Shown: one piece after another, positions 3,543 to 63,205 of the stretch
Layout: the number at the start of each line of letters is the position of its first letter
Position numbering within the stretch: position 1 is the stretch's first letter
Assembly (NCBI GenBank): GCA_963793305.1
Contig: CAWBZV010000005.1
Location: 480,001 to 544,000 of the forward strand
Reading direction: 5' to 3'
Source of the DNA: an uncultured Gemmatimonadales bacterium
GTDB taxonomy: Bacteria > Gemmatimonadota > Gemmatimonadetes > Gemmatimonadales > Gemmatimonadaceae
Length of the DNA: 64,000 nucleotides
Program-made: the position numbers and the translations under genes
Notes under the pieces: generated by a model
Seen by the model: only the letters and a program-made list of their open reading frames with translations
Databases searched by the model: none
What the model was told of the DNA's origin: nothing

Positions 3543-3559
3543 TCTTGAACGATGTCAAC
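3543..3559 (-). promoter_or_regulatory. Recurrent TTG-N8-CAA site GTTGACATCGTTCAAGA
   Basis: Faces the OmpR pair; GAGAAT 19 nt downstream. Confidence 0.75.
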
Positions 3560-3569
3560 ATACGGCCGA

Positions 3570-4895
3570 CTAGTCCGCGAGCGCGTAGAGGTTTCCGTCG
3601 GCGCTGCCGACATACAGCACGCCATCGATGACCGTGGGTGACGAGATGATCGCGCCCAGCGAGTATTCTTGCTCGACTATGGCCACCATGTTGTCGTAGA
3701 ATGGCTCGAGGTGGGGGTCGGTGTAGAAATCGATCGTGCCATCCTTGTCGGTGTGCGCCGCCGCGTGCGCTCGGGATGCTTCCGTCGCGAAGACCCAGGC
3801 GGGCTTTGCCGTGGTGAGATCGACGGCGGTCACCGTCCCGTCCCAGTTCCCGACGTACAGCCAGTGGCCGGCCAGCGCTGGTGAGCTGAATGAGAAGAAG
3901 CGCGTGGGGATCTCGAATACGGGCGTTCCACTGGCCGCGTCGAGCGCCCATATGCGGTGCGAGTCACTGGTGGCGAAGTACACTTTGCCGTCACGGACGG
4001 CTGGCGACCCGACGACCCAGGATCCTTTGTTGTCGAAGGACCATTTCTTCTGGCCGGTCTTGGCGTCGAACGCGTAGAGTTGGGCATCGCGGCAACCGAC
4101 GTACACGACGCCATCCATGACCGCGGCGGAGCCCTGGAAACCGATCTGGTTGTGCATCTTGGGATCGTCCCCGGCTTGGTAGCGCCATTGGAGCGCGCCC
4201 GTCTTCGCGTCCAGCGCATAGAAGTACCTATCCCAACTCCCGATGTACACCGTGCCGTTAGCGATCGCTGGCGAGGCATGGACGACGTCGCCCGTCTGGT
4301 ACTTCCACTGGAGGTGCCCGGATTCGGCGTCGAGGGCGTACACGTTTCCGTCGCCGCTTCCGAAGTAGACGGTATGCTCCCAGACCGTCGGCGAGGAGAG
4401 GAAGACGTCGAACGGGTCGGGCATCCGCTCGGTGACCGGGACGGACCCGTGCAGGTGGGTGCCGGCGAAGCGACGCTCGCCTTGGGTCGCGAACTGCCAC
4501 TTGAGTTGCCCCGTGGCGGCCGTGACGGCATAGAGGTTTCCGTCATAGCTCTCGACGTAGACGACTCCGTCCGATACGGCGGCCGACGCGGTGATGCGGG
4601 CGTGTGTGGCAAACCGCCAGCGCTCCTTCCCGTCCGTGATGTTGATGGCGTAGAGGTAGCGGTCTGTGCTGCCGACGTACACGGTGTTGCCGCTTACGGT
4701 AGGCGACGCGATGACACGGCCGTCGGTGTGAAAGCGCCACTTGACGGCGGGCAACCGCGAGAGGCCAGGAGACTGATACACGCCGGTGTGCGCGGGATCG
4801 CCGCGGAACATTGCGGCGTCCTGGGCGCCCGCCGTGGTGGCGAGCGTCAGGCTCACGAGCATGGCGATGAGGCTACCGCGGTCCTTGATGATCAT
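3570..4895 (-). CDS. PQQ-like/BamB-type beta-propeller repeat protein, secreted
   Basis: Signal peptide; repeated 'SSPTV...VYVGS.DG.LYALDA.TG..KW.F' blades. Confidence 0.9.
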   Translation of the reverse strand: MIIKDRGSLIAMLVSLTLATTAGAQDAAMFRGDPAHTGVYQSPGLSRLPAVKWRFHTDGRVIASPTVSGNTVYVGSTDRYLYAINITDGKERWRFATHARITASAAVSDGVVYVESYDGNLYAVTAATGQLKWQFATQGERRFAGTHLHGSVPVTERMPDPFDVFLSSPTVWEHTVYFGSGDGNVYALDAESGHLQWKYQTGDVVHASPAIANGTVYIGSWDRYFYALDAKTGALQWRYQAGDDPKMHNQIGFQGSAAVMDGVVYVGCRDAQLYAFDAKTGQKKWSFDNKGSWVVGSPAVRDGKVYFATSDSHRIWALDAASGTPVFEIPTRFFSFSSPALAGHWLYVGNWDGTVTAVDLTTAKPAWVFATEASRAHAAAHTDKDGTIDFYTDPHLEPFYDNMVAIVEQEYSLGAIISSPTVIDGVLYVGSADGNLYALAD

Positions 4896-6195
4896 GGCTC
4901 GAGGGATTGTCGCTCCGGCGAATCCACTCGTCGACTATCGCGGCGAGCGGGTGGTGGTAGTGCCGCTCGCAGGCGGCGACGAAGTCCTGCTCAGATGCCA
5001 ATCCATAGGCGTGTGTCCGGACGTAGTCGGCCAGCGCGCCATCCATCGCGCGGGTGCCGATCAGCGCCTCCAGTGACACCAGCACCAGCGGTCCTTTTTC
5101 AAAAGTGAGATCGCCGAACATTGTCGCGAAGCCGCCGCTATCGGCGTGGGCCAAGCTCCCCTGATACACTTTGCCACGTGCTTCGTTGACGAGCTGGGCG
5201 AATGCCGAATCGCCGCGGTCGGCGCGAACCCAGCGCCACGCCATGTACTCGGCGAAGCTTTCGTTGAGCCAGATATCGCTCCACCGCGCCACGGTGACCG
5301 AATTTCCGAACCATTGGTGGGCGATCTCGTGGGCGATGATCTGGTCGTTTTCGTGCTTGCCGGTAATGAACGCGGCGCCGAAGCTGGGCAGGGTCTGGTG
5401 CTCGCGAAATGATTTTCGGGCGAATTCGGCGATGCCGTACTTCTCGCGCACGAACGGGTAGGGGCCCAAGATCGATTCCATGAAGGCCATGGCGCGCGGA
5501 ACCACGGTGAAATCGCTGTCGGCGTGCGTGGAGTCTTCCGGGAACACGAAGAACGTGAGCGGCACGGCCGTGCCCGCACGCGAGTGGAAGATGCCTTGGC
5601 GCACCACGTAGTCGGCGGCGGCGATCGAGATGACATCCGAGTAAATGGGGTAGCGCACGGACCAATGGGTGGTGGCGGTGCCATTGTCGTGCTGCACGCG
5701 GGTCACGAGGCGGCCATTGCTGGCGACTTGCAGCGCGCCGGGGGCGGTGACTTGGATGTCCGCCGAGTCGGCCTTCTCGGAGGGGTCATCCAGCGTCGGC
5801 CACCATTCGCGGGCGGAATTCGGGAGACCGTAAGACGCGATGCGGATGATCCCGGCGTGGTCCGTGAAGGCCAGCGCACGGCCCGAGGGTGTGCCGTGAT
5901 ACCAAATATGGATGGCGCCCTGTGCGGGTGCCGGGATATGCAAGGCGCCGGTGGTGCGTTGAAAGGTGCGGGTACTGACGCTGTCCACCGTCATGGAGTC
6001 GGACAGATCCAGCACCAGATCGCCGGGCGCGCCCGCCGTTGGCGTGATGAAGAGCTGTGCCTCACCGCGAATCGAATGCGTCTCGGGCAGGAGCGTGACG
6101 TGGAGATCGACGTAGCGGAGCCGCCACGCCGGAGGTGCGTGGTGGAAGACCGTCGCGGCACAGACGGCCGCGAGCGCGATGCGGAGGACAGGCAT
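4873..6195 (-). CDS. M1-family zinc aminopeptidase
   Basis: HEIAHQWFGNSVT...WLNESFAEY (HExxH-x18-E); signal peptide. Confidence 0.92.
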   Translation of the reverse strand: MPVLRIALAAVCAATVFHHAPPAWRLRYVDLHVTLLPETHSIRGEAQLFITPTAGAPGDLVLDLSDSMTVDSVSTRTFQRTTGALHIPAPAQGAIHIWYHGTPSGRALAFTDHAGIIRIASYGLPNSAREWWPTLDDPSEKADSADIQVTAPGALQVASNGRLVTRVQHDNGTATTHWSVRYPIYSDVISIAAADYVVRQGIFHSRAGTAVPLTFFVFPEDSTHADSDFTVVPRAMAFMESILGPYPFVREKYGIAEFARKSFREHQTLPSFGAAFITGKHENDQIIAHEIAHQWFGNSVTVARWSDIWLNESFAEYMAWRWVRADRGDSAFAQLVNEARGKVYQGSLAHADSGGFATMFGDLTFEKGPLVLVSLEALIGTRAMDGALADYVRTHAYGLASEQDFVAACERHYHHPLAAIVDEWIRRSDNPSSHDHQGPR

Positions 6196-6228
6196 GTCTT
6201 CGCAAGGTGAGTCGGTCGAACAGGGGGG

Positions 6229-6245
6229 TCTTGAACGATCGCAAC
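6229..6245 (-). promoter_or_regulatory. Recurrent site GTTGCGATCGTTCAAGA
   Basis: CACCTT at 19 nt; M1 ATG 33 nt downstream. Confidence 0.8.
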
Positions 6246-6261
6246 GTGAGGTTCAGCCGTT

Positions 6262-6278
6262 GTTGCATCCGTTCAAGA
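6262..6278 (+). promoter_or_regulatory. Recurrent site GTTGCATCCGTTCAAGA
   Basis: CACGTT at 19 nt; ATG 31 nt downstream. Confidence 0.8.
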
Positions 6279-6309
6279 TCGTTCGAACGAGGTGTCGCAC
6301 GTTGGAGCC

Positions 6310-7245
6310 ATGGTCAATGTAAGCCTGGGTCACGTCGGGATTGCACTGCTGCTCGCGTTCGCCACGTCGGCCTGGGCCCAGACACCGGTCAGGCCAGCCG
6401 CCCGGTGTACGGCCACCGGGGATCTCGAGATTCATGAGCTCACGAGCGCCGTCTTTCACAACACCCGCAAGCTTCGGGTCCTGCTGCCGGCGGGGTATCG
6501 GGATCCGGCGAATGCCTCGCGGCAGTATCCGGTCCTCTATTTGAACGATGGCCAGAATCTGTTTGATGTGTGCACGGCCATCTTTGGCCCGAAAGAATGG
6601 CAGGTCGATGAGAGCGCGATTCGCCTGATTGCGGAGGGTCGAGTCGAGCCACTGATCATCGTGGGCATCGACAACGCGGGTCGGCACGAGCAGGCGCGAT
6701 TGCAAGAGGAGAAACGCGTGGGGTCGCGGCCCAACGAGTATTTGCCGTGGCCCGATAGCGGCTTGGAGCCCTTTATACCGGTTGTCCATGGCAAGGACTA
6801 TCCTCGGTTTCTGACGGGTGAAGTCATGCCGTTCGTCGAGCGCCACTATCGCGTGAAGACGGGGCCGGCCAGCACTGGGCTCGGCGGTTCATCTTACGGC
6901 GCGTTGATCACACTCTACGTCATCGAGCACACGCCCGGCGTGTTCGGCCACGTGCTCATCGAGAGCCCGTCGGTGTACGTTGACGATTACCACGTTCTGC
7001 AGGAGGCTGCAGACGACCACGACTGGCCGGCGCGGCTCTACTTCGGCGCGGGAACCGAGGAGACGCCAAGCGATTCTCCGCTCCAACTGCCGGCCGATAT
7101 CAAGAAGGTCGTCGAGCTCCTCGAACGGAACGGCGTGAACCAGGACCGGATTCTCGTGAATATCACGGCCGGTGAGCACAACGAGGACGCGTGGGCCAGG
7201 CGCTTTCCAACGGCGCTGACTTTTCTGTTCCCGCGCCAGCACTAG
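6310..7245 (+). CDS. Alpha/beta hydrolase, IroE/Fes-like esterase
   Basis: 'YPVLYLNDGQNLF', nucleophile GSSYG, C-terminal 'GEHNEDAWARRF'; signal peptide. Confidence 0.88.
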   Translation: MVNVSLGHVGIALLLAFATSAWAQTPVRPAARCTATGDLEIHELTSAVFHNTRKLRVLLPAGYRDPANASRQYPVLYLNDGQNLFDVCTAIFGPKEWQVDESAIRLIAEGRVEPLIIVGIDNAGRHEQARLQEEKRVGSRPNEYLPWPDSGLEPFIPVVHGKDYPRFLTGEVMPFVERHYRVKTGPASTGLGGSSYGALITLYVIEHTPGVFGHVLIESPSVYVDDYHVLQEAADDHDWPARLYFGAGTEETPSDSPLQLPADIKKVVELLERNGVNQDRILVNITAGEHNEDAWARRFPTALTFLFPRQH

Positions 7246-7271
7246 CCGGGTGGGTGCGGGTGGGCGCCGAT

Positions 7272-7288
7272 GTTGTGTCCATTCTAGA
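7272..7288 (+). promoter_or_regulatory. Recurrent site GTTGTGTCCATTCTAGA
   Basis: CAGAAT at 18 nt; M13 ATG 32 nt downstream. Confidence 0.7.
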
Positions 7289-7320
7289 CATGATCCGCGC
7301 GTGATTCAGAATTCCGGCGC

Positions 7321-9375
7321 ATGACTGCCTCATCTTGGCGTTGGTTATCGATTGCCGTCCTCGCGATCCCCGGTGGCCAGGTGGAGTCGCAGACGACGGT
7401 TCCCACGGTGCTCAGGGTGATCGACCCGGCGTACATGGATACGACGGTTAACGCGTGCACGGACTTTTTCGCGTTCGCCAACGGGCATTGGCTCAAGACT
7501 GATACGATCCCGGCCATCTACGCAGCGGACGGTATCGGCAGGGACATGGTCGATCAGAATGAGCGCGTCACGCGCTCGCTGGTCGACGATGTGGTCGCGC
7601 ACCGCCAGGGCGCAGCCGAGGGGGGCACGGAGCGCAAGTTGGGCACCTTCGTCGCCTCGTGCATGGACTCCACGGCGGCGGAAACTCAGGGGCTGGCGCC
7701 GATTCAATCCTTCCTCGATCACGTGGCGGCGATCCGCTCGCGCGACGCGCTGGTGCCGGAGATCGCCGAGCTTCAGCTGCAGGGCGTGAACGCGTTGTTC
7801 TCGATCTCGCCGAACTCGGCGGTGCACGATGCGGGGCATTACCAGGAATGGTTCACCCAAGCGGGACTGGGCCTGCCGGACCGCGCCTACTATACGGACT
7901 CTGGGCACGCGGCGGATTCCGTCCGCGACGAGTACGTGGCGCACGTCGCGCGCTTGCTGGTGCTTGCCGGCGCGACGCGGGCCCAAGCGGATGATGACGC
8001 GAAGCGGGTCATGGCGCTCGAGACCGAGCTGGCGAAAGCGTCGACTACCGTCGAGGCATTGCGTGAGCCGCGGGAGACCGACCACCCGATGTCCCTCGCC
8101 GCGCTGGGCGCGCTGGCGCCGAACGTCTCGTGGCCGGTGTACTTTCGAGCGGTCGGACTGACGAAGCCACTCGGGCGTGTCAATGTCGCTGAGCCAGGGT
8201 TTTTCCGCAGGATGAGTACGTTGCTGGCGACAATACCGCTGGCAGACTGGCGGGCCTATCTCCGGTTTCACGTTCTCGCGAGTGCCGCGCCGTGGCTCAG
8301 CTCGAGCTTCGTGCAGGAAGATTTCGCGTATCAGCGCCTGTTCACCGGCGCGACCGAGATCTTTCCCCGTTGGAAGCGGTGCTTGAACGAGACTGATGCC
8401 GATGTCGGTGAAGCGCTGGGCCAGGCGTACGTCGCCAAGACGTTCCCGCCCGAGGCCAGGACGCGGGCACGACAGATCATCGATGACATTCGAGCCGCGT
8501 TCGGCCAGCGACTGGCGCATCTGACGTGGATGTCCGACGCGACGCGGACAGCGGCGCTCAACAAGCTGGCGCATATGCACGAGAAGATCGGCTACCCCGA
8601 CCACTGGCGCGACTACTCGCGGCTCCGGGTCGGCGATGGCGCATTCGTGTTGAACGTCTTCTCGGCGCGTCGGTTCGAGTGGGAACGCGTCAAGGACCGT
8701 CCGGGTACGCCAGTGGACACCACCGAATGGGTCCTGACCGCGCCGACCGTCGATGCGTACAACGACATCACGAAGAACGAGATGGCGTTCCCGGCCGGGG
8801 CGCTCGAGCCGCAAACCTTCAATGTCCACGCCGATGACGCGGCCAACTATGGGGCACTCGGCGCGAGCTGGGCCGGTCATGAGCTGACGCATGGCTTCGA
8901 TGATCAGGGGCGACATTACGACGAGCGGGGCAATTTGCGCGACTGGTGGGCGAGCGCGGATTCCGCCCGGTTCGTGCAGCAGGCTGATCTCCTCGTCCGG
9001 CAGTACGACGAGTTCATTCAGGTGGACACGCTGCATGTGAACGGGCGGCTGACGCTGGGTGAGAACCTCGCGGATTTCGGTGGGTTGCTGACCGGATATG
9101 ATGCGATGGAGCGGGCGCTCGAGCGGGATGGTCGACCGGGCCTCATCGACGGATATACGCCGGAGCAGCGCTTTTTCATTTCCTTCGCGCAGGGTTGGCG
9201 GGGACACGCACGACCGGCGTTGCTCCGTTCGACGCGGATGACCAACGTCCACTCACCGGACGAATGGCGCGTGATCGGTCCGATCTCCGATATGCCGCAG
9301 TTCGCGCAGGCGTTTCACTGCCATCCGGGAGATCCGATGGTTCGACCCGACAGTCTCGTGGCCAAAATCTGGTAG
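7321..9375 (+). CDS. M13-family (neprilysin/PepO-like) metalloendopeptidase
   Basis: 'CTDFFAFANGHW', 'KIGYPD', HELTHGFDDQG, 'GENLADFGG'. Confidence 0.95.
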   Translation: MTASSWRWLSIAVLAIPGGQVESQTTVPTVLRVIDPAYMDTTVNACTDFFAFANGHWLKTDTIPAIYAADGIGRDMVDQNERVTRSLVDDVVAHRQGAAEGGTERKLGTFVASCMDSTAAETQGLAPIQSFLDHVAAIRSRDALVPEIAELQLQGVNALFSISPNSAVHDAGHYQEWFTQAGLGLPDRAYYTDSGHAADSVRDEYVAHVARLLVLAGATRAQADDDAKRVMALETELAKASTTVEALREPRETDHPMSLAALGALAPNVSWPVYFRAVGLTKPLGRVNVAEPGFFRRMSTLLATIPLADWRAYLRFHVLASAAPWLSSSFVQEDFAYQRLFTGATEIFPRWKRCLNETDADVGEALGQAYVAKTFPPEARTRARQIIDDIRAAFGQRLAHLTWMSDATRTAALNKLAHMHEKIGYPDHWRDYSRLRVGDGAFVLNVFSARRFEWERVKDRPGTPVDTTEWVLTAPTVDAYNDITKNEMAFPAGALEPQTFNVHADDAANYGALGASWAGHELTHGFDDQGRHYDERGNLRDWWASADSARFVQQADLLVRQYDEFIQVDTLHVNGRLTLGENLADFGGLLTGYDAMERALERDGRPGLIDGYTPEQRFFISFAQGWRGHARPALLRSTRMTNVHSPDEWRVIGPISDMPQFAQAFHCHPGDPMVRPDSLVAKIW

Positions 9376-9397
9376 GGCGGCCCCTTGGGCGGCGGCA

Positions 9398-9910
9398 TGA
9401 TAGTTGAGAGTCTCGTCAGGCATCTCCGTATCACCGCCCGCGGTCTCCGCCGGACGCCCGGCGCCACGCTTGTTGCCGCCTTGACCATGGCGCTGGGGAT
9501 CGGCGCTACGGCGGCTGTGTTCAGCCTGGTCGATGCGGCTTTCCTGCACGAGCTGCCCTACGCCGGCGCCAACCGCCTCGTCACGTTGTCGACGACTCGC
9601 AAAGGTGAAGACCTGTCGAATTCCTATCCCAACTTTCTGGACTGGCGCGAGCGCAACCACACGTTCATGTCCATCGCCGCTTTCGCCGGCACGAGCGTCG
9701 CGCTTGCGAGCGGGAACGGCAATGCGGAGCTGATTCGAGCACAGATCATCACACCGGATCTCTTCCGTACGCTCGGAGTACCGGTCGCGCGCGGGCGTGA
9801 CTTTGTTGACGCGGAAGGCCAGTGGGGAGCGCCGCACGTCGCGATCGTGGGTGATGGCCTTTGGAAGCGCCGGTTCGGCGGCGATCCCGCGATCGTCGGC
9901 CGGACCACGG
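9398..9910 (+). pseudogene. ADOP/MacB-type permease, N-terminal fragment only
   Basis: 'LRITARGLRRTPGATLVAALTMALGIGATAAVFSLVDA...SYPNFLDWR...LWKRRFGGDPAIVGRT' then homology ends abruptly. Confidence 0.8.
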
Positions 9911-10423: not shown

Positions 10424-11527
10424 CGCGCCGGTGATGCGAGTGAGGTCCGGGCTCAGGTCGAACCGCGTGACTCGCTCGGGTGTGGTGCCGTTCTGGATGG
10501 CGTAGAGGGCGTGGCCCACGAGGTACATGCCGTCGATTCCGTTGACCGCGACGGTATCCGGATGGGGGAGCCAGGTCACGGCGTGGGTCAATGGGTCGAC
10601 GGCCGCTATGCCCATCGCGTAGTCGGCGACGAGGATACGACCGTCGGGGGTGACGGCTGGTGTCTGGGGTGAGCGAAAGGTCCCCGGGTGGACCACCGTC
10701 TCGATCGTCCCGCGCCGGCGATCGACGCGATAGAGGCCGCCGCCCGTGCCATCGGACACGATCGGGTTGCCGTGGGCGTCGAGCGTCATGTCTCCCAGGA
10801 CGTGGCCGGCGTTGTCCAGTGGCAGCGGGTAGCGGCCGGTGACGCGGTGCGTGGCCAGATCGTATCGGAGGACGCCACTTCGACTCGAGTCGGCCGCGCG
10901 CCAGTGCCCGGCTTGTGGCATCGAGGCGGTCGTTGCCCAGAGCGTCTGGCGCTCGGGGTCGACGACGAGCGCGACCGGTGTGAGCAGCGTGTCATCCGAG
11001 ACGGCGAATGTCGTCGTGGTTCCCGATGCGGTAATCGCGATGATCCGCTGCGCGTGGATGCAGCTGATGTAGAACGTGCGCGTGGCGGGGTCGTAGGCCA
11101 CGTCTTCGGTCAGGAGGTCAGGATCCGACATCGCGGTCACGGGCGTGGCATGGCTAATGGGTGACCGGTTCGCTGCCATCGCCGCGAGCACTGCCTTGAA
11201 ATCGTCGCGCTCGTGTAATGCCGCGAACGTCGTATCGCGATCGGCGGGGTACGCGAGGCCCATCGCCGCGATCGTCCGCAGGTAGGCGACCGCGGTATCT
11301 GGTTGGCCTCGTCGCACGGCGTTCCGGGCGAGCAGATAGAAGACGTCGGGGTGGCCGTGCATGAGCGTGAGTGCCCGTTGCAGGTGTAGCACGGCGGACA
11401 TCGGATCACTGGCGCGGGCGGCGGCGAGGTGTTGGCGATAGGTCGAGTCTTGCTGCGCGCTGGCGGATGATGATGGCGTGGCCAGCGCGAGTACGGCTGC
11501 CACGGTCAGCGTGTCGCGGCCGATCAT
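10412..11527 (-). pseudogene. Secreted TPR + SMP-30/gluconolactonase-like beta-propeller protein, C-terminally truncated
   Basis: Signal peptide, TPR-like N-terminus, propeller 'EDVAYDP...GDMTLD...SPQTPA...GIDGM...AIQNG'; reading frame runs into the antisense of the DUF2911 fragment. Confidence 0.7.
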
Positions 11528-12846: not shown

Positions 12847-12877
12847 CGTGCATCGTATCGCGACGCGTCACGGCTCG

Positions 12878-12894
12878 TCTTGCACGATTTCAAC
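12878..12894 (-). promoter_or_regulatory. Recurrent site GTTGAAATCGTGCAAGA
   Basis: TACGAT at 20 nt; S41 ATG 31 nt downstream. Confidence 0.78.
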
Positions 12895-13019
12895 ATTGAT
12901 GATGGACGTGATCGCAGTGACGCGCGCGTTAACAGCGTGGGAGTTGACGTGCGTGCATCACGACGCCATCCTCGCAGTGTGACGAACATGAGCCGGACAC
13001 CTCGCGTCCGTCGTGCGAC

Positions 13020-14235: not shown

Positions 14236-14319
14236 CGAGGACGTGGATGGCGCGACGTGGGCGCCAATGAGGCGACGAGCGCGAGCAACCTACATCTATA
14301 GTAGTGCGCCGCAGGGCTG

Positions 14320-14336
14320 GATTGAACGAACGCAAC
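14320..14336 (-). promoter_or_regulatory. Recurrent site GTTGCGTTCGTTCAATC (orphan)
   Basis: TATAGAT 19 nt downstream; faces the 3' end of the XRE gene. Confidence 0.65.
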
Positions 14337-14411
14337 ATGCCCTTGCCCATGATGTCACACCGCCGCTCCTGCGTTGACAGTGCGGGCACGGCCGTGCATG
14401 ATGGCGCGACC

Positions 14412-15425
14412 ATGACATCACTTCTGAACGTGCTATTGGCGTTGACGCTCCACGGGACCGTCGTCGTCGCCAACATGAACGACAACACGGCGTCGGTTAT
14501 CGATCTGGCGAGTGGCCGGACCATGGCCACGCTGAGGACGGGTGACGGACCGCATGAAGTCGCGATCTCGCGGAATGGCCGTTGGGCCGTCGTCTCCAAT
14601 TACGGACCCGGGAAAGTGCCTGGTCATTCGCTGACGGTCATCGACTTGTCGGTGCGGGTTCCGGTGGTGGTGCGCACCATCGAGCTCGGCGCGGCCAACG
14701 CGCATCCGCACGGCTCGGCGTTCCTGCCGGGGGATTCGACGATGCTCGTGACGGTGGAGAAGAGCCAAGCCGTCTTGGTCGTGAATATTCTGCGTGGTGT
14801 GGTGGAGGCGTCGATTCCGACGCACGGCCGCTTCACGCACATGATCGCGCTCACGGCCGCGGCGGACCGCGCGTACACGAGCAATGTCGGCGACGGCACC
14901 ATATCGGAGCTCGACATCACGCGGCGCGCGTTCGTGCGCACGATTGCGGTCGCGCCGGTGGTGGAAGGCATCGGGGTAAGCCCCGACGGGTCTCAGGTAT
15001 GGGTGGGGAGCGACAGCCTCAAGACGGTGAGCATCGTGCCGACGGGGTCGGGGACCGTGGCGCATGTCATCAGGGGCTTCGGCTTTCCGTACCGGATGGC
15101 GATCACGGCCGACAATCGGACGGCCATCGTGACGGATCCGGCTCACGGCGAGCTCCGGTTCTTGGATGTGGCGACTCGGGTGGAGATCGGGCGTACGTTC
15201 TTTCCTGGCGGTACGGTGGTCTCGACGTCGGAGTTCCCGAACTCGCCGAGTCCGGAGGGGATCAGTTTGGCGCCGGATGGGAAGACGGTGTACGTGACGT
15301 TGCAGGGGAAGAATGCGGTGGTCGCGGTCGATGTCGCGACGCGGACGGTGCTCCTGACGCTGCCGACCGGCGTGTGGCCCGACGGCCTCGCGTACACGCC
15401 GGTGGAGCACGTACTTAACCGGTAA
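14412..15425 (+). CDS. YncE/YVTN-family beta-propeller protein
   Basis: 'VVANMNDNTASVID...TGDGPHEVAIS...VSNY', repeated PEG/PHG blades. Confidence 0.88.
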   Translation: MTSLLNVLLALTLHGTVVVANMNDNTASVIDLASGRTMATLRTGDGPHEVAISRNGRWAVVSNYGPGKVPGHSLTVIDLSVRVPVVVRTIELGAANAHPHGSAFLPGDSTMLVTVEKSQAVLVVNILRGVVEASIPTHGRFTHMIALTAAADRAYTSNVGDGTISELDITRRAFVRTIAVAPVVEGIGVSPDGSQVWVGSDSLKTVSIVPTGSGTVAHVIRGFGFPYRMAITADNRTAIVTDPAHGELRFLDVATRVEIGRTFFPGGTVVSTSEFPNSPSPEGISLAPDGKTVYVTLQGKNAVVAVDVATRTVLLTLPTGVWPDGLAYTPVEHVLNR

Positions 15426-15555
15426 TCCGCGGTGCGGCCCACGAGGGACATCATCCGCCGAAATCGCTCACTCGACGCTATTGGTCATGACGCGCCAGGA
15501 TTTCCATTGCTCTCCTGCTCTTCGGAGCACTTCGAGCACTCGGCACCGCGTCGCG

Positions 15556-15572
15556 TCTTGGATGGACGCAAC
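15556..15572 (-). promoter_or_regulatory. Recurrent site GTTGCGTCCATCCAAGA (orphan)
   Basis: Lies between convergent genes. Confidence 0.7.
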
Positions 15573-15604
15573 GCGGCTTGCCAGGGATTTGTGATGTTTT
15601 CTCC

Positions 15605-17065: not shown

Positions 17066-17112
17066 GGTGAAGCTCCGTTGCAGGAGAGAAGGCAGCATGC
17101 CCGGTGAGCTCC

Positions 17113-18282: not shown

Positions 18283-18434
18283 CGGGAGACGGTGGGGTTG
18301 GGTGATGGCGAGCGATTGGATAAAACGGCCACTGCCTGGGCGCGATCTGCGTACGACGATGCGGGGGCGAAGCGGAGCGCCATCACGGCCGTCGTGCTCC
18401 AAGGTGAGCTAGCTACCTGCGTGCAATGGAGATG

Positions 18435-18451
18435 TCTTGTATTAATGCAAC
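18435..18451 (-). promoter_or_regulatory. Recurrent site GTTGCATTAATACAAGA
   Basis: Upstream of the gene starting at 18282. Confidence 0.7.
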
Positions 18452-18704
18452 ATCGTATGCGCACCGTCTTCCGCGCCGGTCAGGGTCCATCGGCGACATG
18501 AGCGGCGAAGGTATGCGCCGGCGCGAGCGCGTTCCACCGCGTCGCGCATTCGGCTCGGCGAACGGTGTTGGAGGGTCGGTGAATCGTTCTTTACCGAACG
18601 GCCAACGCCTCACCCGGCCGAGCCCTTGACGTCGTCACGACCTCGCGAGTGCGTGGTCAGCGAAATGTTGGTTGCGGCGCGGGGGCAGTATATTCGCGGT
18701 CGTG

Positions 18705-19735
18705 ATGGTTCCACGCCTCGCATTGTTGACCGCTGTATGGCTTGTCGCGCCACTGCGGGCCCAGCTGTTTCCGGCGGGACCGCATCCCGTTGGTCTGCGC
18801 GTCATGTCGATCGATGTGCCTCGCCGCATGCGTGTCATCCTGTGGTATCCGATCGCGACCTCATCACCCGCTGCGCGAGCAACGCTCGCGACCTACGTCG
18901 CGGTTATTCATGATACGTCGTTCACCACCGAAGCGGCTGCATTCGCCCACACGACGCTGAGCGAACGGGCGATCGCCGCGATGCTCACAACGCCCAGTCA
19001 TGCGGTGTTGGGCGCCGCACACGCGCCGGGCCGCCATCCGTTGGTGTTGCTCGGCAACGGATTCGGCCCTCCATACTTCGTGCACTGGGCGCTCGCCGAG
19101 TATCTCGCCGGTCGCGGCTATGTCGTGGCGGCGCTGGCGGGGTCAGAGGGTGACGAGAACCGTCCTTTCAACCTCTCAGGGGTAACGGCGATCGCGGAGG
19201 ACATGAAGACAGCCCTGACGTCGCTGTCGGCGCTTTCCTTCGTCGACGCGCGCCACGTCGGCCTGGTTGGATTGAGCGTCGGCGGGTTGGCGCAGGCGTT
19301 CGTCGCAGCGACGACGAGGAACGTCGGCGCGATCGTGAGCCTCGATGGCGGGACGGTTATGCCTATGGCGCACAGATGCTCGACAGCGCGACCTGGCTCG
19401 ATCGCTCGCGCTTCACGATCCCCTATCTTCACCTGACGGGCGATGGCGTGCCGTCTATCGTCGTGGCCAAGAGCACGGTGTTCTACGATTCGCTCGCCCA
19501 GGGTCCCGCGTACCTGCTGCACGTCAAGCACCTGACGCACGCCCAGTTCACATCCTTAGGCATCCTGGTCGCGTGGATGGCGGACTCCACGGCTGCCGGC
19601 CCGATGCTCGAGGAGTACGCGCACGTCGCGCGCACGACGGCTTGGATGCTCGATACCTACGTGGCGAGCAGGTCGAGCTCGACCGACGCCTTGAACGAAC
19701 GCAACATCGTCAAGCGAAGAGCGTTCACGCATTGA
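18705..19735 (+). CDS. Secreted alpha/beta hydrolase (PAF-AH/dienelactone hydrolase-like), frameshifted near 19360
   Basis: 'GPHPVG...VILWYP...EYLAGRGYVVAA...GLSVGG...VSLDGG'; continues in another frame 'IPYLHL...HLTHAQF'. Confidence 0.75.
19689..19705 (-). promoter_or_regulatory. Recurrent site GTTGCGTTCGTTCAAGG
   Basis: In the hydrolase tail, ~90 nt before the ADOP start, in reverse orientation. Confidence 0.6.
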
Positions 19736-23116: not shown

Positions 23117-23279
23117 GCACTCCTGACGACGGCGGGCCGGCATCGACACGCGCGTGGTCGCCGCGCCGTAGGCCATCCGTCCGAGCGGGGGGGCCGCGCC
23201 GCCTCGGGGCAAAAGAGACGACGCGGTTGACAACCCCAAAACATCGAACCCTGAAACGTTCGTGCGGCGCAGCGAGATG

Positions 23280-23296
23280 TCTTGAATGAATCCAAC
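23280..23296 (-). promoter_or_regulatory. Recurrent site GTTGGATTCATTCAAGA
   Basis: AACGTT at 19 nt; faces the lipoprotein gene at 23116. Confidence 0.78.
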
Positions 23297-23344
23297 GTGG
23301 CGAGCGTGCGTGTCCTCGTGCACATTCCGAACCACGGAGGGGTG

Positions 23345-28479: not shown

Positions 28480-28527
28480 CACGCCATCCGGTCTCCCACG
28501 CGTGCCCGCGCGACCGGGTCGAGTCGT

Positions 28528-28544
28528 GTTGCATCCATTCAAGA
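28528..28544 (+). promoter_or_regulatory. Recurrent site GTTGCATCCATTCAAGA
   Basis: CAAGTT at 19 nt; upstream of 28624. Confidence 0.8.
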
Positions 28545-28623
28545 TCGGATCACGCGGGCATCCCAAGTTCGACTTGGAATAACGCGCCGGCGTTCTTGCT
28601 GCGCCCCCCAATTGCACCGACTC

Positions 28624-36085: not shown

Positions 36086-36166
36086 TGGGTCTCCGGAAGC
36101 GGATGGCAGGGTGTGGAGCGGTTGAGCCCACTGCAGTAGCTACGCTAGGGGGGGCGAGCGTCCGTG

Positions 36167-36183
36167 TATTGAACGATCCCAAT
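36167..36183 (-). promoter_or_regulatory. Recurrent site ATTGGGATCGTTCAATA
   Basis: TAGCGT at 19 nt; upstream of the MBL gene at 36085. Confidence 0.65.
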
Positions 36184-36259
36184 GCGATGGTCGAACGAAC
36201 CGGCACGAAATAGTCGGTCCGTGCACAGACAGTCGTGGCCGGCCGAAGCCGGAGAACAG

Positions 36260-36276
36260 GTTGCATTCATCCAAGA
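36260..36276 (+). promoter_or_regulatory. Recurrent site GTTGCATTCATCCAAGA
   Basis: CAACGT at 20 nt; only an 11-codon ORF follows. Confidence 0.75.
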
Positions 36277-36772
36277 CGGCTTGGTTTGTGGAAGTCCAAC
36301 GTGGAGATGACCACGTGTCGGCCCATCGTGGTACCAGCCTAACCACACGAGCCATCGGCTCAGGACATTGCGCCCGCTGCGGCCGCCCGCCGGGCGGGAA
36401 GCCAAGATGCCAGTACCGCAACGGACGTTGCGGCCTTGGTGGCGCCTGAGTGGCCCTACGGTTGCTTCGGCCAGTGTGAACACGAGGTGTCCGGCGGCGT
36501 GCCTTGAACGATCCGCACATTGCGCCGTGTTCGCGGCTGGTCTGCGGCCATTGATCGTTTGCGATGGGCTGATCACCAATCGTGAGACGTACACTACCGT
36601 CCCCGGTCCGACGCACACCCCGATCCATCCATGGTCTCGCTGCGTGGGGGAGTGACGCGGATTGCAACCTGAAGTAGCGCCTCGTCGGCGTCGCACGCCT
36701 CGGGGCGCAGGCTCCAACGCGCCCTGGCCGTCGTGAGAAACCAAGCGGAGGGGGCGTGTTGTCCTACGATGC

Positions 36773-40266: not shown

Positions 40267-40418
40267 GGCCTGTTCGATGGTAAGATCCATACCAGCGATC
40301 GGCCCATGTCAACTACGTGGTGCATCGGCGCTTTCGTCTGGTGCGAGGCGGTCGTGGTGTTCGCCGGCGGGACCGCCTGCTCGATTACGAGACCAGTGGA
40401 TCGCGTGAAGAGGCAGTG

Positions 40419-40435
40419 TCTTGAACGAATGCAAC
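40419..40435 (-). promoter_or_regulatory. Recurrent site GTTGCATTCGTTCAAGA (consensus)
   Basis: Upstream of the ADOP at 40266. Confidence 0.8.
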
Positions 40436-40532
40436 GCGTCCTTGGTGACGCGGGTGACGATCACTCCCTCTACACCCATCCGGCCGGCCTTGGTGGCGCG
40501 TGACCATCTGGCGGTGGATTCCGTCGCCGCGT

Positions 40533-43412: not shown

Positions 43413-43508
43413 ACCGGAACGCTAGGAAGAAGAAGTCTCCGGGCGTGGTCGAGCGGCGTCGCGCTCGTGACCGCACGATCTCAATCTGATGGCCCCAGCG
43501 ATCGTCAG

Positions 43509-43525
43509 TCTAGAACACACGCAAC
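43509..43525 (-). promoter_or_regulatory. Recurrent site GTTGCGTGTGTTCTAGA
   Basis: CAGATT at 20 nt; upstream of 43412. Confidence 0.6.
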
Positions 43526-43546
43526 GTTCTCGTGGCGCAGGGCCAG

Positions 43547-43563
43547 GTTGGGTTCCTTCAAGA
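43547..43563 (+). promoter_or_regulatory. Recurrent site GTTGGGTTCCTTCAAGA (orphan)
   Basis: Faces the 3' end of the convergent ADOP. Confidence 0.7.
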
Positions 43564-43632
43564 CGGCGTGGTGAATGAGCGCGGCGCGGCTCGATGGGCA
43601 CTTCGTGGGTCGCGCGCACTGAGAATCGCTGA

Positions 43633-46325: not shown

Positions 46326-46398
46326 TAGCAGCGCTGTCAAGCGATTTGAGCGAGCGACCGTGTCAGGACACCGCGGCCGTAGTCGTTCACAGCGGCAG

Positions 46399-46415
46399 GT
46401 TGGATTCATGCAAGA
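46399..46415 (+). promoter_or_regulatory. Recurrent site GTTGGATTCATGCAAGA
   Basis: CAACTT at 19 nt; upstream of the oxidoreductase. Confidence 0.78.
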
Positions 46416-46599
46416 CGGCGTGGTTGCGGAAGTGCAACTTCGGCCGCGTTGGATGTGCCCCACGTGGAGGTGGCCACGTGTTGCTCTGTCGCGTGGGGTG
46501 ACGTCGCGCGCGCGGCCGCTACGCTTTTTCGCGTACAGGGTCCTAGGTCACGGCCGGTGTCAGCACCAGATAGCCGCGGACCGCAATGGAGCCTGTGTG

Positions 46600-54912: not shown

Positions 54913-54967
54913 CGGGTGCATAGGGGTCGAGTCGGCGGTCGTCGGATCCCGTTTTGCGAGAGTCTGC

Positions 54968-54984
54968 GTTGCGTCTGTTCAAGA
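54968..54984 (+). promoter_or_regulatory. Recurrent site GTTGCGTCTGTTCAAGA
   Basis: GACCTT at 18 nt; upstream of 55154. Confidence 0.78.
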
Positions 54985-55153
54985 CATTGGCGGCTCCTCG
55001 ACGACCTTACGGTCGTATGCCGCAATTGCGCGCGCGCGCGGGCACCGTCCTTCGCCTGCCGACGGCAGCTGAGCACCATGTGCTCCGGGTCTTGTGGACG
55101 TACGGTCTCCGCACGCCGTCCACGGTACCGTCAACCCCCACGTATACTGGGAC

Positions 55154-56008
55154 ATGATTGCACTCCATCTCTTAATGATCTTGGCCCAGGCCCAGGCGCC
55201 AGACTCGCTCCTCACGACCGTGCGCGGGCTCAGTCGCGTTATCCCTGGCGAATTGCCGACCGCGGTGAGTTACCTGAGCGCCTACGAAGACTCCCTGGTC
55301 ATCGGGAGTGCGGTCGACGGCGCGGGATCATCCAATGTCTTCATGGTCACGGGCGTCTTCCAAGTGCGATTCAAGCACGGCTGGATCATGGTCGACGCCG
55401 CCATGGACTCATCGACCCAACATCAGATCCGCTCGTTCAAGGCCGACAACTTCGCGAGGATCGAGACGGCGCTCGAGAAGGCGAACTTGATCGTCATCAC
55501 GCACGAGCACGCGGACCATGTTCAGCCGTTGGTCAAGTCGCCGATCGCTGACCAAGTCGCGCCGCATACATTGCTCACCAGGGAGCAAGTCCAGACTCTG
55601 GTCACGAAGCCCGAAGTCGCGTTCACCTCAATGGACTCATCGCAGGTGGGCCGGTACATTGTCGTCGCTTACGACCGGGCGCTGCCGATCGCGCCCGGGG
55701 TTGTGCTGATCAAGGCGGCCGGGCACACACCGGGATCGCAGATGGTCTATGTGAAGCTCGCGTCGGGGCGAGAAATGATCCTCGCTGGCGACGTCGCGTG
55801 GTTCGTGCTCGGCATCGATACGCAACGCCAGAAGCCCGACTCGACGAGCCGGTTCATGGGCGAGGATCGTACGGCCCTCGGCAAGGAACTCGCCTGGCTC
55901 AAGGACGTGCGAGCGCAAGGGGTCACGGTCGTGGTGAGTCACGACGGGAGCCAGCTCAAGTCGCTCGCCAAGAAGGGTGTGCTCAGCGAGGGACTGGTAG
56001 TCCAGTAA
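55154..56008 (+). CDS. MBL-fold metallohydrolase
   Basis: THEHADH, AGHTPG, GDVAW, VSHD. Confidence 0.9.
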   Translation: MIALHLLMILAQAQAPDSLLTTVRGLSRVIPGELPTAVSYLSAYEDSLVIGSAVDGAGSSNVFMVTGVFQVRFKHGWIMVDAAMDSSTQHQIRSFKADNFARIETALEKANLIVITHEHADHVQPLVKSPIADQVAPHTLLTREQVQTLVTKPEVAFTSMDSSQVGRYIVVAYDRALPIAPGVVLIKAAGHTPGSQMVYVKLASGREMILAGDVAWFVLGIDTQRQKPDSTSRFMGEDRTALGKELAWLKDVRAQGVTVVVSHDGSQLKSLAKKGVLSEGLVVQ

Positions 56009-57607: not shown

Positions 57608-58249
57608 CTAAGGGTTCTTCTTGATCCCGAGGATTATGCCGTTAAGTGCCTGAGCATATATGCTGACATTGTCGTTGCCCGGGAACGTGACTTCCGTAAC
57701 CACCATGAACGTTCGGAGCTCGCAGAAGCCGCCGGCGGTCCAGGCCGGGACGGTTGTGTAGCGCAGCGTTGGTGAGTTGGTGCACTGACGGGGGATGGAG
57801 TTCGCTTCGAAGTAATCAGCCGAGTCGGTTGCGAGCAACGTAGCTGTGGTATCGTAGAGACGCTCCCTCAGGCCTGGACTCACGAGTATCCCCGAACTCA
57901 CATTCGAATCACTGAACGTCATCAACGTGAACGATCGGGCCGTGATGGCGCCCTGTGCATCCAACGAATCGATCTCGAGAATGAATCCTTGCGACGTATC
58001 CACTCGCATGCCGTCTTGGATCGCCAAGGGAGAGGGTGCGGCGCCAAACGCCGGCGGGAGTGCGAAGTTCGTCAGAAACGTGCATCGCGCTGCTTGGTTG
58101 CTGTTGTTACATGCTGATCCCAGGAGCTGGTCGAAGTGGACGGCTTCGAGGGCGAGTGTAGCCTTGGGTTCAGAAATCCCGGTATCGCTGCCGCAGGCGA
58201 TTGCGGCGGCAACCAGTGACACCCAGGCGGCGATACGAGCACCGTTCAT
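57608..58249 (-). CDS. Hypothetical lipoprotein
   Basis: GGGGAGG RBS; lipobox AIAC; four additional Cys; lower GC. Confidence 0.7.
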   Translation of the reverse strand: MNGARIAAWVSLVAAAIACGSDTGISEPKATLALEAVHFDQLLGSACNNSNQAARCTFLTNFALPPAFGAAPSPLAIQDGMRVDTSQGFILEIDSLDAQGAITARSFTLMTFSDSNVSSGILVSPGLRERLYDTTATLLATDSADYFEANSIPRQCTNSPTLRYTTVPAWTAGGFCELRTFMVVTEVTFPGNDNVSIYAQALNGIILGIKKNP

Positions 58250-58357
58250 AACACCGAACCTCCCCTAGGGGAACGGTTCTTTAACTCAGGTCGTTCGGTC
58301 GCGGTTCAACTGTCCCGACGATACCCCATCATATGGTATGGCGTGGAAGTATTGCCG

Positions 58358-58374
58358 TCTTGAACGAACGCAAC
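58358..58374 (-). promoter_or_regulatory. Recurrent site GTTGCGTTCGTTCAAGA
   Basis: TACCAT at 19 nt; upstream of the lipoprotein at 58249. Confidence 0.8.
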
Positions 58375-58479
58375 TCGGCGCGTGGTTAACCGACCTTGGG
58401 CACGGTGGGTTGCCTCTCTTCGCTGACCGGCAACTTCAAGTCGCGTCCGAGCGCCTCGTCGGGGCCCAGGGAGTTTCAT

Positions 58480-62183: not shown

Positions 62184-62270
62184 AGTGCGCGGTCCAGAGG
62201 CATGGGTGCTAATATGCGTTGGCACCAGTCAGCCCGCGTCGTCTCCAGGTGAGCAGGCCGCCTGGCGCAC

Positions 62271-62287
62271 GTTGCGTCCGTTCAAGA
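62271..62287 (+). promoter_or_regulatory. Recurrent site GTTGCGTCCGTTCAAGA
   Basis: AATACT at 20 nt; upstream of the SRPBCC gene. Confidence 0.8.
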
Positions 62288-62464
62288 CTGGCCGAACATA
62301 CGTCGCCAATACTCAACTATACCGAAAACAGGGTCAAGCGCCGCGGTTGCGGTGACAGGCGACCTGCCGGGCGGGACGGCCACAACCATGGATAGGATGA
62401 GATCCTCACGCACTACGCGAAAGCGATCGTGCGCTCGTGTGACACCCTGGAGGAGGATGGTGCC

Positions 62465-63016
62465 ATGCTTTGTCTGACGATGGCCGTATTGCTGACGGTG
62501 AGACCGTCACCGCTACCCGAGCCGCTACCCGAACTGGCGGCGATCGACCTGACAACCGAGGTGGCCGCGCCTGTGGACTCGGTCTGGAGCGCGTGGACGA
62601 CGCAGGCTGGAGTCACATCGTTCTTCGCGCCCGCGGCGCATGTGGAGCTCCGGATGGGTGGGTCCTACGACATCTACTTTCATCCTGAGGCGGCGGCTGG
62701 CCAGCGTGGCGGCGAGGGACTCCGGGTTCTGAGCTACCTACCGCGTCACATGATGTCGTTCGAGTGGATGGCCCCGCCGGAGTTCACGCGGGTGAACGAG
62801 CACCGCACCTTCGTGGTCGTGACGATGGACTCGATCGGACCCCGACGCACCCGCGTGACGCTCTCACACCGCGGATGGTATTGGGATGACGCGGACTGGC
62901 GACAGGTGCACGGGTTCTTCGAACAGGCGTGGCCAATGGTGCTGCGCAATCTTCGTCACCGGTTCGAGGTAGGGCCCATCGACTGGAAGGACCCGAACTT
63001 CAACTACGGCGGGTAG
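62465..63016 (+). CDS. SRPBCC/AHSA1 domain protein with signal-like N-terminus
   Basis: GGAGGAGG RBS; 'VAAPVDSVWSAWTT...VLSYLPRHMMSFEW..PP...TRVTLSH.GW'. Confidence 0.88.
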   Translation: MLCLTMAVLLTVRPSPLPEPLPELAAIDLTTEVAAPVDSVWSAWTTQAGVTSFFAPAAHVELRMGGSYDIYFHPEAAAGQRGGEGLRVLSYLPRHMMSFEWMAPPEFTRVNEHRTFVVVTMDSIGPRRTRVTLSHRGWYWDDADWRQVHGFFEQAWPMVLRNLRHRFEVGPIDWKDPNFNYGG

Positions 63017-63159
63017 CGTCTCGGCAATGTCCGTCTAGGTCGTGCCTGCCGGTGCCAAAAAACACGACGCGGACCACCTGGAGAGGATAGGTGGCCCGCG
63101 CCGCGTCCTATGCAGCATTCGTGCAGACGGCTGTAGAATAGTGCCAGTCACCATGCCGA

Positions 63160-63176
63160 TATTGAATGAACCCAAC
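63160..63176 (-). promoter_or_regulatory. Recurrent site GTTGGGTTCATTCAATA (orphan)
   Basis: TATTCT at 19 nt; no intact gene follows on the minus strand. Confidence 0.65.
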
Positions 63177-63188
63177 ATCGATCTACCT

Positions 63189-63205
63189 GTTTCGTTCATT
63201 CAAGA
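63189..63205 (+). promoter_or_regulatory. Recurrent site GTTTCGTTCATTCAAGA
   Basis: TATGGT at 19 nt; ATG 31 nt downstream. Confidence 0.75.

Follow-up and report, generated by a model that had tools for sequence, protein, structure and literature searches.

A 20-bp promoter-like box repeated 59 times in one accessory island of a Gemmatimonadaceae genome and its candidate AraC/XylS-family regulator

The stretch of DNA analysed here (the window) comprises 64,000 nucleotides (nt) of the genome of an uncultured Gemmatimonadales bacterium (G000; 5.72 Mb in 26 contigs, 65% GC) and corresponds to positions 480,001-544,000 of its contig C5. The window carries 22 copies of a short and well-conserved sequence, hereafter the box. 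These belong to a set of 59 copies within C5:435-610 kb (about 175 kb), an array that extends 44.6 kb to the left of the window and 65.7 kb beyond its right end, and then stops. An initial annotation of the window had described a dense regulon of about 20 copies. The dense array of copies is real, but its scale is larger and it is confined to an accessory island. Box copies were scored in bits with a weight matrix 22 nt wide, and positions are numbered with the G of GTTG as 0. Gene calls come from our own codon-usage caller and are crude. The copies in the window are given below by window coordinates, strand and score, together with the downstream NANNNT hexamer (N, any base) and the genes ahead.

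3542..3561, minus strand: box, 25.6 bits, GAGAAT at +36; ahead of an operon of two OmpR/PhoB-type regulator genes (2756-3472 and 1992-2759) and an AHSA1 gene
6228..6247, minus strand: box, 31.3 bits, CACCTT at +36, divergent partner of 6260..6279; ahead of an M1 peptidase gene (4873-6195, start codon at +50), then a PQQ propeller gene
6260..6279, plus strand: box, 24.1 bits, CACGTT at +36; esterase gene (6310-7245) with start at +48, predicted leaderless
7270..7289, plus strand: box, 28.5 bits, CAGAAT at +35; M13 peptidase gene (7321-9375) with ATG at +49, predicted leaderless
12877..12896, minus strand: box, 25.5 bits, TACGAT at +37; S41 peptidase gene (11524-12840) with start at +54
14319..14338, minus strand: box, 29.0 bits; no called gene downstream
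15555..15574, minus strand: box, 22.3 bits, the lowest in the window; runs toward the 3' end of a beta-propeller gene (14394-15425) as an orphan or antisense copy
18434..18453, minus strand: box, 28.5 bits; toward a gene of unknown function (17113-18282) and a TPR gene (15605-17098)
19688..19707, minus strand: box, 29.1 bits; inside a weakly called open reading frame (ORF; 19376-19735), possible target a minus-strand ORF (19118-19540)
23279..23298, minus strand: box, 33.4 bits, AACGTT at +36; toward a gene of unknown function ending at 22231
28526..28545, plus strand: box, 24.9 bits, CAAGTT at +36; gene for an unknown protein of 424 amino acids (28624-29898)
36166..36185, minus strand: box, 23.1 bits, TAGCGT at +36; ORF of 60 amino acids (35903-36085) and metallo-beta-lactamase-fold gene (34990-35895)
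36258..36277, plus strand: box, 26.5 bits, CAACGT at +37; next called gene, DUF2268/GldB-like (37026-37778), 766 nt off
40418..40437, minus strand: box, 32.7 bits; MacB/FtsX-type (ADOP) permease gene (37876-40290)
43508..43527, minus strand: box, 24.4 bits, CAGATT at +37; gene of unknown function (42479-43009), 516 nt off
43545..43564, plus strand: box, 26.7 bits; orphan facing the 3' end of a permease gene (43633-46209)
46397..46416, plus strand: box, 27.0 bits, CAACTT at +36; ahead of an operon of FAD-oxidoreductase-like (46600-48582), extracytoplasmic function (ECF) sigma (48645-49925) and Rce1-like genes
54966..54985, plus strand: box, 26.9 bits, GACCTT at +35; metallo-beta-lactamase-fold gene (55094-56008)
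58357..58376, minus strand: box, 29.7 bits, TACCAT at +36; gene of unknown function (57608-58249)
62269..62288, plus strand: box, 29.7 bits, AATACT at +37; AHSA1-family gene (62465-63016)
63159..63178, minus strand: box, 28.2 bits, TATTCT at +36, divergent partner of 63187..63206; orphan facing the 3' end of 62465-63016
63187..63206, plus strand: box, 23.9 bits, TATGGT at +36; ATG 63237 (+48) of a predicted leaderless esterase gene running off the window

The motif occurs far beyond chance. All 22 positions named by the initial annotation carry the box, with matrix scores of 22.3-33.4 bits. Searching the 64-kb window for GTTGSRTYCRTTCAAGA with at most two mismatches returned 18 matches compared to 0.11 expected, and none of 100 shuffled sequences reached 18. 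The remaining four copies (3543, 12878, 36167 and 43509) have three mismatches to GTTGSRTYCRTTCAAGA. The aligned copies share 20 conserved positions, A(T/C)GTTG(C/G)RTTCRTTCAAGAC, totalling 28.3 bits, and positions -40 to -3 upstream of the box show no conservation (below 0.25 bit). The box is asymmetric and has no dyad, with the near-invariant blocks GTTG (0-3) and TTCAAGA (10-16) about one helical turn apart. No covariation was found between the two R (purine) positions 5 and 9 (GG 25, AG 13, GA 7, AA 7). The pseudo-palindrome TTG-N8-CAA proposed earlier stands only for its three outer pairs, which are complementary in 59, 46 and 55 of the 59 copies. The next pairs are complementary in 5, 20, 15 and 2 copies (pair 4,11 in 5; pair 7,8 in 2), and not one of the 59 copies has 5-bp complementary arms.

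Flanking sequences are similar in 4 of 1711 copy pairs, one of the four being an overlapping tandem pair. Unrelated flanks in the other 1707 pairs exclude a repeat or transposon end, an origin that the initial annotation had considered as the alternative to a protein-bound operator. A repeat element or miniature inverted-repeat transposable element was rejected given the lack of terminal inverted repeats and of similarity reaching into the flanks. An integron cassette array was rejected as well, since the boxes lie at 5' ends and on both strands, and the only integrase found is located at a tRNA-Pro gene outside the array.

The placement of the box supports, in silico, a shared promoter element in class II position. 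Among 47 copies, 43 are intergenic in DNA that is 84% coding, and 35 of the intergenic copies are directed at the next gene start. Copies between co-directional genes follow the gene direction (e.g., 7272, 28528 and 54968). Within the window, 19 of 22 copies are intergenic by the crude calls and 17-18 point at the next gene start, in line with the first description; copies 63160 and 63189 become intergenic too if the esterase gene starts at ATG 63237. The downstream hexamer is more sharply placed than initially noted. NANNNT starts at +36 in 28 of the 59 copies, leaving a gap of 18 nt to the box, and at +35 to +37 (a gap of 18 nt plus or minus one) in 39, compared to about two per position on the control side of the box. 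The last six positions of the box, AAGACa (+13 to +18), occupy the predicted place of the -35 element, 17 bp from the -10, and lack TTG in all copies. Both the earlier suggestion that the AAGAC tail is the overlapped -35 and the suggested class II geometry at about -41.5 hold up as in silico predictions.

Start codons provide a second view of the geometry. In total, 46 of the 59 copies are oriented toward an assigned gene and cover 44 of the 98 putative transcription-unit starts in the island. In none of the 44 assigned units does a start codon lie closer than +48 (one gene-call artefact aside), and nine lie at +48 to +57. Outside the island, in a sample of C3:1-800,000, TANNNT peaks 12 nt upstream of start codons (23 compared to about 3). 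This peak indicates that leaderless mRNAs are native to the organism, and a -10 at +36 with an ATG at +48 in the island reproduces the same geometry. Leaderless mRNAs are thus probably common in this organism. The -10 spacing and the leaderless starts together predict transcription from about +48, which would place the box centre at about -41.

Metagenome relatives (runs X7 and X9) allow limited footprinting. There, copy 6229-6245 has changed at no site other than the two R positions (G to A in both cases), against three substitutions and three indels in the 16 nt that separate it from its divergent partner. In the X7 relative, the spacer between the esterase and M13 peptidase genes is about 11 nt long, compared to 75 nt in G000, where it holds copy 7272 and its -10. 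A 64-nt indel containing exactly this promoter means that a promoter segment can be present or absent between relatives. The genes behind the boxes encode secreted peptidases of at least seven families, esterases, proteins with beta-lactamase and metallo-beta-lactamase folds, and erythromycin esterase. Further targets are MacB/FtsX permeases, TonB receptors, DinB, YceI, Rce1-like proteases and several secondary regulators. One might speculate that such a set serves scavenging and/or defence against xenobiotics.

The array is confined to one island and does not form a dispersed genome-wide regulon. Allowing at most two mismatches, 47 of the 55 matches in the genome fall within C5:435,376-609,650, and the eight outside agree with the chance rate of the window scan applied to 5.5 Mb. 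Matrix matches inside the island, which is 3% of the genome, account for 51 of 51 at 24 bits or more, 58 of 66 at 20 or more and 59 of 73 at 18 or more. Of the 14 outside matches at 18 bits or more, 13 lie inside called ORFs and 12 have no -10. These matches are therefore read as chance, with the exceptions of C5:1,031,000 and C2:758,879. Relatives were compared at no more than one mismatch. Against 40 matches in G000 at this threshold, 30 relatives (five from the same genus) yielded 0-2 each, and 400 genomes sampled over the class have at most five each. The tallies of relatives include one unpublished genome (G012) with no match. A scan of genome contigs for exact 18-mers gave single scattered matches only, among the matches listed.

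The box-bearing stretch is an accessory island of about 180 kb. On contig C94 of the same-genus genome G001, the LysR-side flank (C5:432,106) is joined to C5:618,029 within about 6 kb, a junction that leaves about 186 kb extra in G000. Homologues of island genes are scattered across the genomes of relatives without synteny, and the gene order is kept in no relative examined. No clean insertion point was obtained in G005, where the corresponding region is mosaic too. Soil and peat metagenome contigs hold near-identical or about 90% identical versions of window 3000-9500, so the island is present in a small clade and not restricted to one assembly. Among the RNA data sets listed for this segment, none contains it. 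The GC content and tetranucleotide profile do not clearly differ from the rest of C5 and give no sign of foreign origin, and no recombinase or transposase genes were found by Pfam inside the 175 kb. Many island genes have paralogues elsewhere in G000 at 65-91% nucleotide identity. In the three pairs of about 90% identity given below, the similarity covers the coding sequence and ribosome site only and ends at the stop codon; the copies outside have no box.

C5:476,980-481,376 and C3:222,121-226,520: paralogue pair, about 90% identity
C5:567,944-570,389 and C5:1,208,555-1,211,000: paralogue pair, about 90% identity
C5:577,773-580,136 and C5:1,198,181-1,200,544: paralogue pair, about 90% identity

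Orthologous sequences of G001, although equally diverged, align across intergenic regions as well. Gene conversion or a copying process precise to coding sequences could possibly explain the pairs.

To the right of the array, two small mobilisable modules lie in tandem at a tRNA-Pro(GGG) gene (C5:618,061-629,578) and are not part of the array. They carry genes for an integrase, an excisionase-like helix-turn-helix (HTH) protein, a MobA/VirD2 relaxase, NikA and FtsK, and are bounded by repeats of the 3' part of the tRNA gene at 618,061-618,108 (48 of 48 positions) and 621,497-621,566. A giant element integrated at tRNA-Pro was rejected as the origin of the island because the tRNA repeats bound only these two modules to the right of the array. 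TIR and RES genes are located just left of the modules (C5:614,523-616,199), and G001 has another element at the same tRNA-Pro.

The island encodes several regulators, namely five LytTR proteins, two OmpR/PhoB-type regulators, an ECF sigma factor, BlaI, GntR and PadR types, and an AraC-family protein. The activator was initially thought not to be encoded in the stretch. This holds for the 64-kb window but not for the island, which has a candidate gene 43 kb beyond the right end of the window.

C5:586,758-587,684 (window coordinate 106,758-107,684): AraC/XylS-family candidate regulator

A paralogue at C5:573,810-574,731, with a 33-bit box ahead, shares 72% identity with the candidate over residues 1-239 and shifts frame near residue 236. 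The candidate regulator has 308 amino acids and matches the Pfam models HTH_18 (6.4e-23) and HTH_AraC (7.5e-13); no curated NCBIfam model passed its cut-off. Its C-terminal domain of about 100 amino acids contains two HTH motifs, as is characteristic of the AraC/XylS family. RamA (7bef_G) is the best sequence relative of solved structure (E 2.8e-10), and the matches to RamA, Rob, SoxS, AraC and MarA in the PDB cover residues 179-279. An AlphaFold model (mean predicted local distance difference test score, pLDDT, 84.6; predicted template modelling score, pTM, 0.81) consists of a cupin barrel, a helical linker and the two-HTH domain. Full-length structural matches of the model are ToxT, Rns, CsvR and CuxR at 10-14% identity, and its DNA-binding domain fits the AdpA-DNA complex with a root-mean-square deviation of 1.9. 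Three histidines of the barrel, H44, H46 and H84, are invariant in the homologue alignment, which suggests a metal or ligand site.

Genomic linkage points to this protein as the reader of the box. Homologues of the island AraC gene in five other genomes and on two metagenome contigs have as direct neighbour a box with its -10 at +35 to +37. G220 has an AraC-family gene (38% identity) flanked by three boxes (27.9, 16.6 and 26.7 bits; -10 at +35/+36) that point at DinB, DJ-1/PfpI and hydrolase genes. Crossing class-wide motif matches with class-wide homologue places revealed two further cases. In G105:C37 the box overlaps the stop codon of the regulator gene and is followed by CATCCT at +36 and a YceI gene. 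The G409:C145 box falls within the final 30 nt of the regulator gene, with CAGCTT at +36 and a beta-lactamase gene behind it. In G227, a 17.4-bit box lies 90 nt past the homologue and has CAGGTT at +36. The orthologue in the same-genus genome G005 (68% identity) is followed after 70 nt by a 24.2-bit box ahead of a TonB receptor gene. Two metagenome contigs with regulators of 93-96% identity have a reverse box upstream and two forward boxes downstream, in a gene order unlike that of G000. On contig L184, the stop codon of a gene runs straight into the box next to the regulator gene, and 6.4 kb of G000 are missing. In G000 itself, a reverse-oriented box lies about 160 nt upstream of the regulator gene and is kept in a metagenome relative. 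By an arithmetic estimate (about 110 strict matches in 400 genomes, 72 homologue places), chance adjacencies should number about 0.01; four were seen, two in G220 and one each in G105 and G409. No LytTR, OmpR-type or sigma genes are among the annotated box neighbours in G220, G105 and G409, with neighbours in G005 and G227 only partly annotated. An unrelated AraC-family gene of G000 (DUF6597 and HTH_18; C2:758,165-759,360) contains an 18.1-bit box-like sequence in its last codons, with TAGGTT at +36, ahead of a glyoxalase gene. A target promoter placed at the 3' end of the regulator gene seems to be a habit of this lineage.

We consider it likely, though well short of certain, that the AraC/XylS-type regulator of the island binds the box, which would form the upstream part of some 59 predicted promoters in one accessory island, and that it activates transcription from a class II position centred at about -41. 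The housekeeping-sigma RNA polymerase would use the weak core promoters only with the regulator on the box. A single domain with two HTH motifs would contact GTTG and TTCAAGA through neighbouring major grooves and aid the polymerase at the weak -35, touching sigma region 4 and/or the C-terminal domain of the alpha subunit as MarA, SoxS, Rob and RamA do at class II marboxes. The N-terminal cupin domain with its conserved histidines might sense a small ligand or metal, and one signal would then switch on some 44 or more transcription units together. The reverse box about 160 nt upstream of the regulator gene might provide autoregulation.

Comparisons with known systems are consistent with an ordinary type of regulator. 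PMC8811837 describes MarA as a DNA-bound monomer whose two HTH motifs occupy adjacent major grooves, and places a class II site of RamA on micF at about -41. Class II marboxes in forward orientation overlap the -35 (PMC12052159). By these two accounts (PMC8811837, PMC12052159), the MarA/SoxS/Rob/RamA group resembles the island system in the use of a single two-HTH domain on an asymmetric site of about 20 bp, the -35 overlap, the centre near -41, the tens of promoters per regulator and the reverse copies further upstream at some promoters. The island regulator differs by its 308 amino acids with an N-terminal cupin and by a box sequence unrelated to the marbox, far less degenerate (28 bits), and with all copies in one stretch of about 175 kb rather than chromosome-wide. 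ToxT, Rns and CsvR share the overall fold of cupin and AraC domain with the island regulator. These proteins are encoded in accessory DNA, and each activates several promoters there via asymmetric boxes near the -35, though at about ten promoters or fewer and with degenerate AT-rich boxes. The island instead has 59 well-conserved boxes in GC context, and its regulator is 10-14% identical to these proteins. FNR/CRP class II promoters share the TTG-N8-CAA spacing and the predicted centre near -41, but the island box has no dyad beyond 3 bp, a conserved centre and asymmetric ends, and the island has no member of the family. SetCD and AcaCD of SXT and IncC elements are element-encoded, FlhDC-type activators that drive transfer genes via a conserved box next to the -35 of many element promoters. 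Conjugation genes are however absent from the box-bearing region, and the integrase and relaxase modules at tRNA-Pro lie outside. Near-identical promoters placed before unrelated genes are known in prokaryotes as promoter reuse or mobile promoters (PMC3575422). In the island, only the 20-bp box and the -10 are shared, without a longer homologous segment. Literature searches, with supplementary files outside their reach, returned nothing relevant on Gemmatimonadetes promoters, AraC regulons or start-site maps.

Several observations weigh against the AraC-type regulator as activator of the island. The protein is joined to the box by genomic linkage, in five other genomes and two metagenome contigs, and adjacency does not tell which partner binds. 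Among 29 homologue loci (31-39% identity) scanned with the matrix, 25 have no match of at least 12 bits and three have weak matches only, so the link holds for a subset of homologues. The DNA-binding helices are alike in homologues with and without a box, which makes specificity unreadable from the alignment. In other genomes a forward box follows the regulator gene, but the intact gene of G000 lacks one past its stop codon. The paralogue with the strong box ahead (C5:573,810-574,731) is frameshifted inside the DNA-binding domain and could be a pseudogene or an assembly error. Three other island regulators also lie behind a box and have no close orthologues in the genus. At the level of targets, 13 of the 59 copies have no assigned gene, about five face the 3' end of a gene, and the box precedes only 44 of the 98 putative unit starts under the crude gene calls. 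Activation is preferred over repression solely because of the poor -35.

A different island regulator might read the same promoter element, although we judge this unlikely. Candidates are one of the five LytTR proteins (e.g., C5:575,823-576,554, start codon at +52 of a box), the OmpR/PhoB-type pair (window 1992-3472), which as a heterodimer would occupy two half-sites of different sequence, or the ECF sigma factor (window 48645-49925). Each candidate gene or operon is preceded by a correctly oriented box and has no close orthologue in four array-less genomes of the same genus (G001, G002, G003 and G005; best identity 39%, 31% and 48%). LytTR genes are numerous in the genus, with 25 in G000, and the core CGTTCGTTC of the box may resemble the AlgR site. 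Yet the neighbour of the box in the five other genomes is an AraC-type regulator. LytTR sites consist of two direct 9-bp repeats about 21 bp apart (AgrA, ComE, PlnC), but no conserved second repeat exists about 21 bp upstream of the box, where positions -40 to -3 stay below 0.25 bit. The two blocks of the box are unlike each other, at odds with an OmpR-type homodimer, and a 20-bp element reaching -51 together with a housekeeping-type -10 does not fit an ECF sigma factor alone. Presence or absence of orthologues in the genus does not discriminate among the OmpR-type, LytTR and ECF candidates, all of which have no close orthologues. LytTR-domain matches number 25 in G000, 5-20 in genomes of the same genus and 0-5 in the other genera searched.

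The box could also be primarily a boundary or recombination site of shuffled modules, or the core of a small mobile promoter cassette, with promoter activity being secondary. The 64-nt indel between the esterase and M13 peptidase genes, which carries exactly box and -10, the fusion of a stop codon to the box on contig L184 with 6.4 kb of G000 missing, the loss of homology at the stop codon in three paralogue pairs, and an island gene order kept in no relative examined all fit such a site. Nevertheless, we regard this as very unlikely. Breakpoint cases number only two or three, Pfam found no recombinase or transposase gene in the 175 kb, and the box has neither terminal repeats nor conserved flanks. 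A constant distance from the box to the -10 and the start codons suits a promoter rather than a crossover site, and single boxes lie beside AraC-type genes in distant genomes without an array.

Equally little weight can be given to the box as a repression operator, where an AraC-type or other protein over the -35 would silence the island until a signal arrives. The site does overlap the -35 region, where repressors act too, and a silent default state would suit a large accessory island. However, the -35-like AAGACa lacks TTG in all copies and the core promoters seem too weak to need repression. According to PMC12052159 and PMC8811837, AraC/XylS proteins on sites overlapping the -35 are typically activators.

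The least probable reading, and an extremely unlikely one, is the initially proposed CRP/FNR-family dimer, encoded elsewhere in the genome and co-regulating the genes from TTG-N8-CAA at -41.5: TTG and CAA are nearly invariant and spaced as in the FNR box, the predicted centre is near -41 and the genome has eight HTH_Crp_2 matches, but none of the eight lies in C5:435-610 kb, the arms comprise 3 bp only, the ends are asymmetric, the centre, which is free in the FNR box, holds 0.9-1.5 bits per position, in other genomes the box is found next to AraC-type genes, and a global regulator would hardly have all its sites in 3% of its genome with no array in 430 relatives. With moderate confidence, the sequence evidence thus favours the island-encoded AraC-type regulator over a CRP/FNR protein.

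The best reading is an ordinary type of regulator with an extraordinary, island-bound regulon that has expanded massively in one island. Sensor-domain regulators of the AraC/XylS family normally control only a few promoters close by. The island regulator appears to own about 59 well-conserved sites at roughly half of the island transcription units and nothing elsewhere, and relatives such as G005 and G220 have between one and three of these sites next to the regulator gene. Should the link hold, the island would be a rare snapshot of a local regulator becoming the master switch of an island, with the growth of the regulon traceable site by site. The array also offers a first promoter architecture, as predicted from sequence, for Gemmatimonadaceae, with a weak -35, a NANNNT -10 and frequent leaderless starts, and it provides a ready and testable promoter set for a phylum with almost no genetics. 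A bolder and rather doubtful proposal is that the island is a platform for gene capture and expression, in which coding sequences copied or brought in from other places, their homology ending at the stop codon, were each fitted with a standard AraC-dependent promoter module of about 65 nt, and modules and genes were gained, lost and reshuffled between near relatives. If true, a single ligand-sensing regulator would recruit genes wholesale in a promoter-based counterpart of the integron.

Further features were observed at the edge and inside of the island. At the left edge, the minus strand holds a tRNA-Ile gene with anticodon TAT (C5:432,842-432,915, about -47,100 in window coordinates), with an intact RibD_C gene on one side and a fragment of RibD_C on the other. 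Such an anticodon is unusual for tRNA-Ile in bacteria. The gene at C5:456,517-459,798 (L002:11717-14998) encodes a protein of 1093 amino acids, in which a Ser/Thr protein kinase domain is fused to a MacB_PCD/FtsX (ADOP-type) permease. At window 30307-30937, a gene for an FtsX fragment of 219 amino acids is 92.6% identical to part (38855-39488) of a full-length permease gene 8 kb away, and is a partial duplicate or a remnant. A segment of 320 bp is 93% identical between window 35785-36102 and C5:570,683-570,998 and holds an ORF of 60-62 amino acids just downstream of a box. One copy of the segment precedes a metallo-beta-lactamase-fold gene and the other a permease gene.

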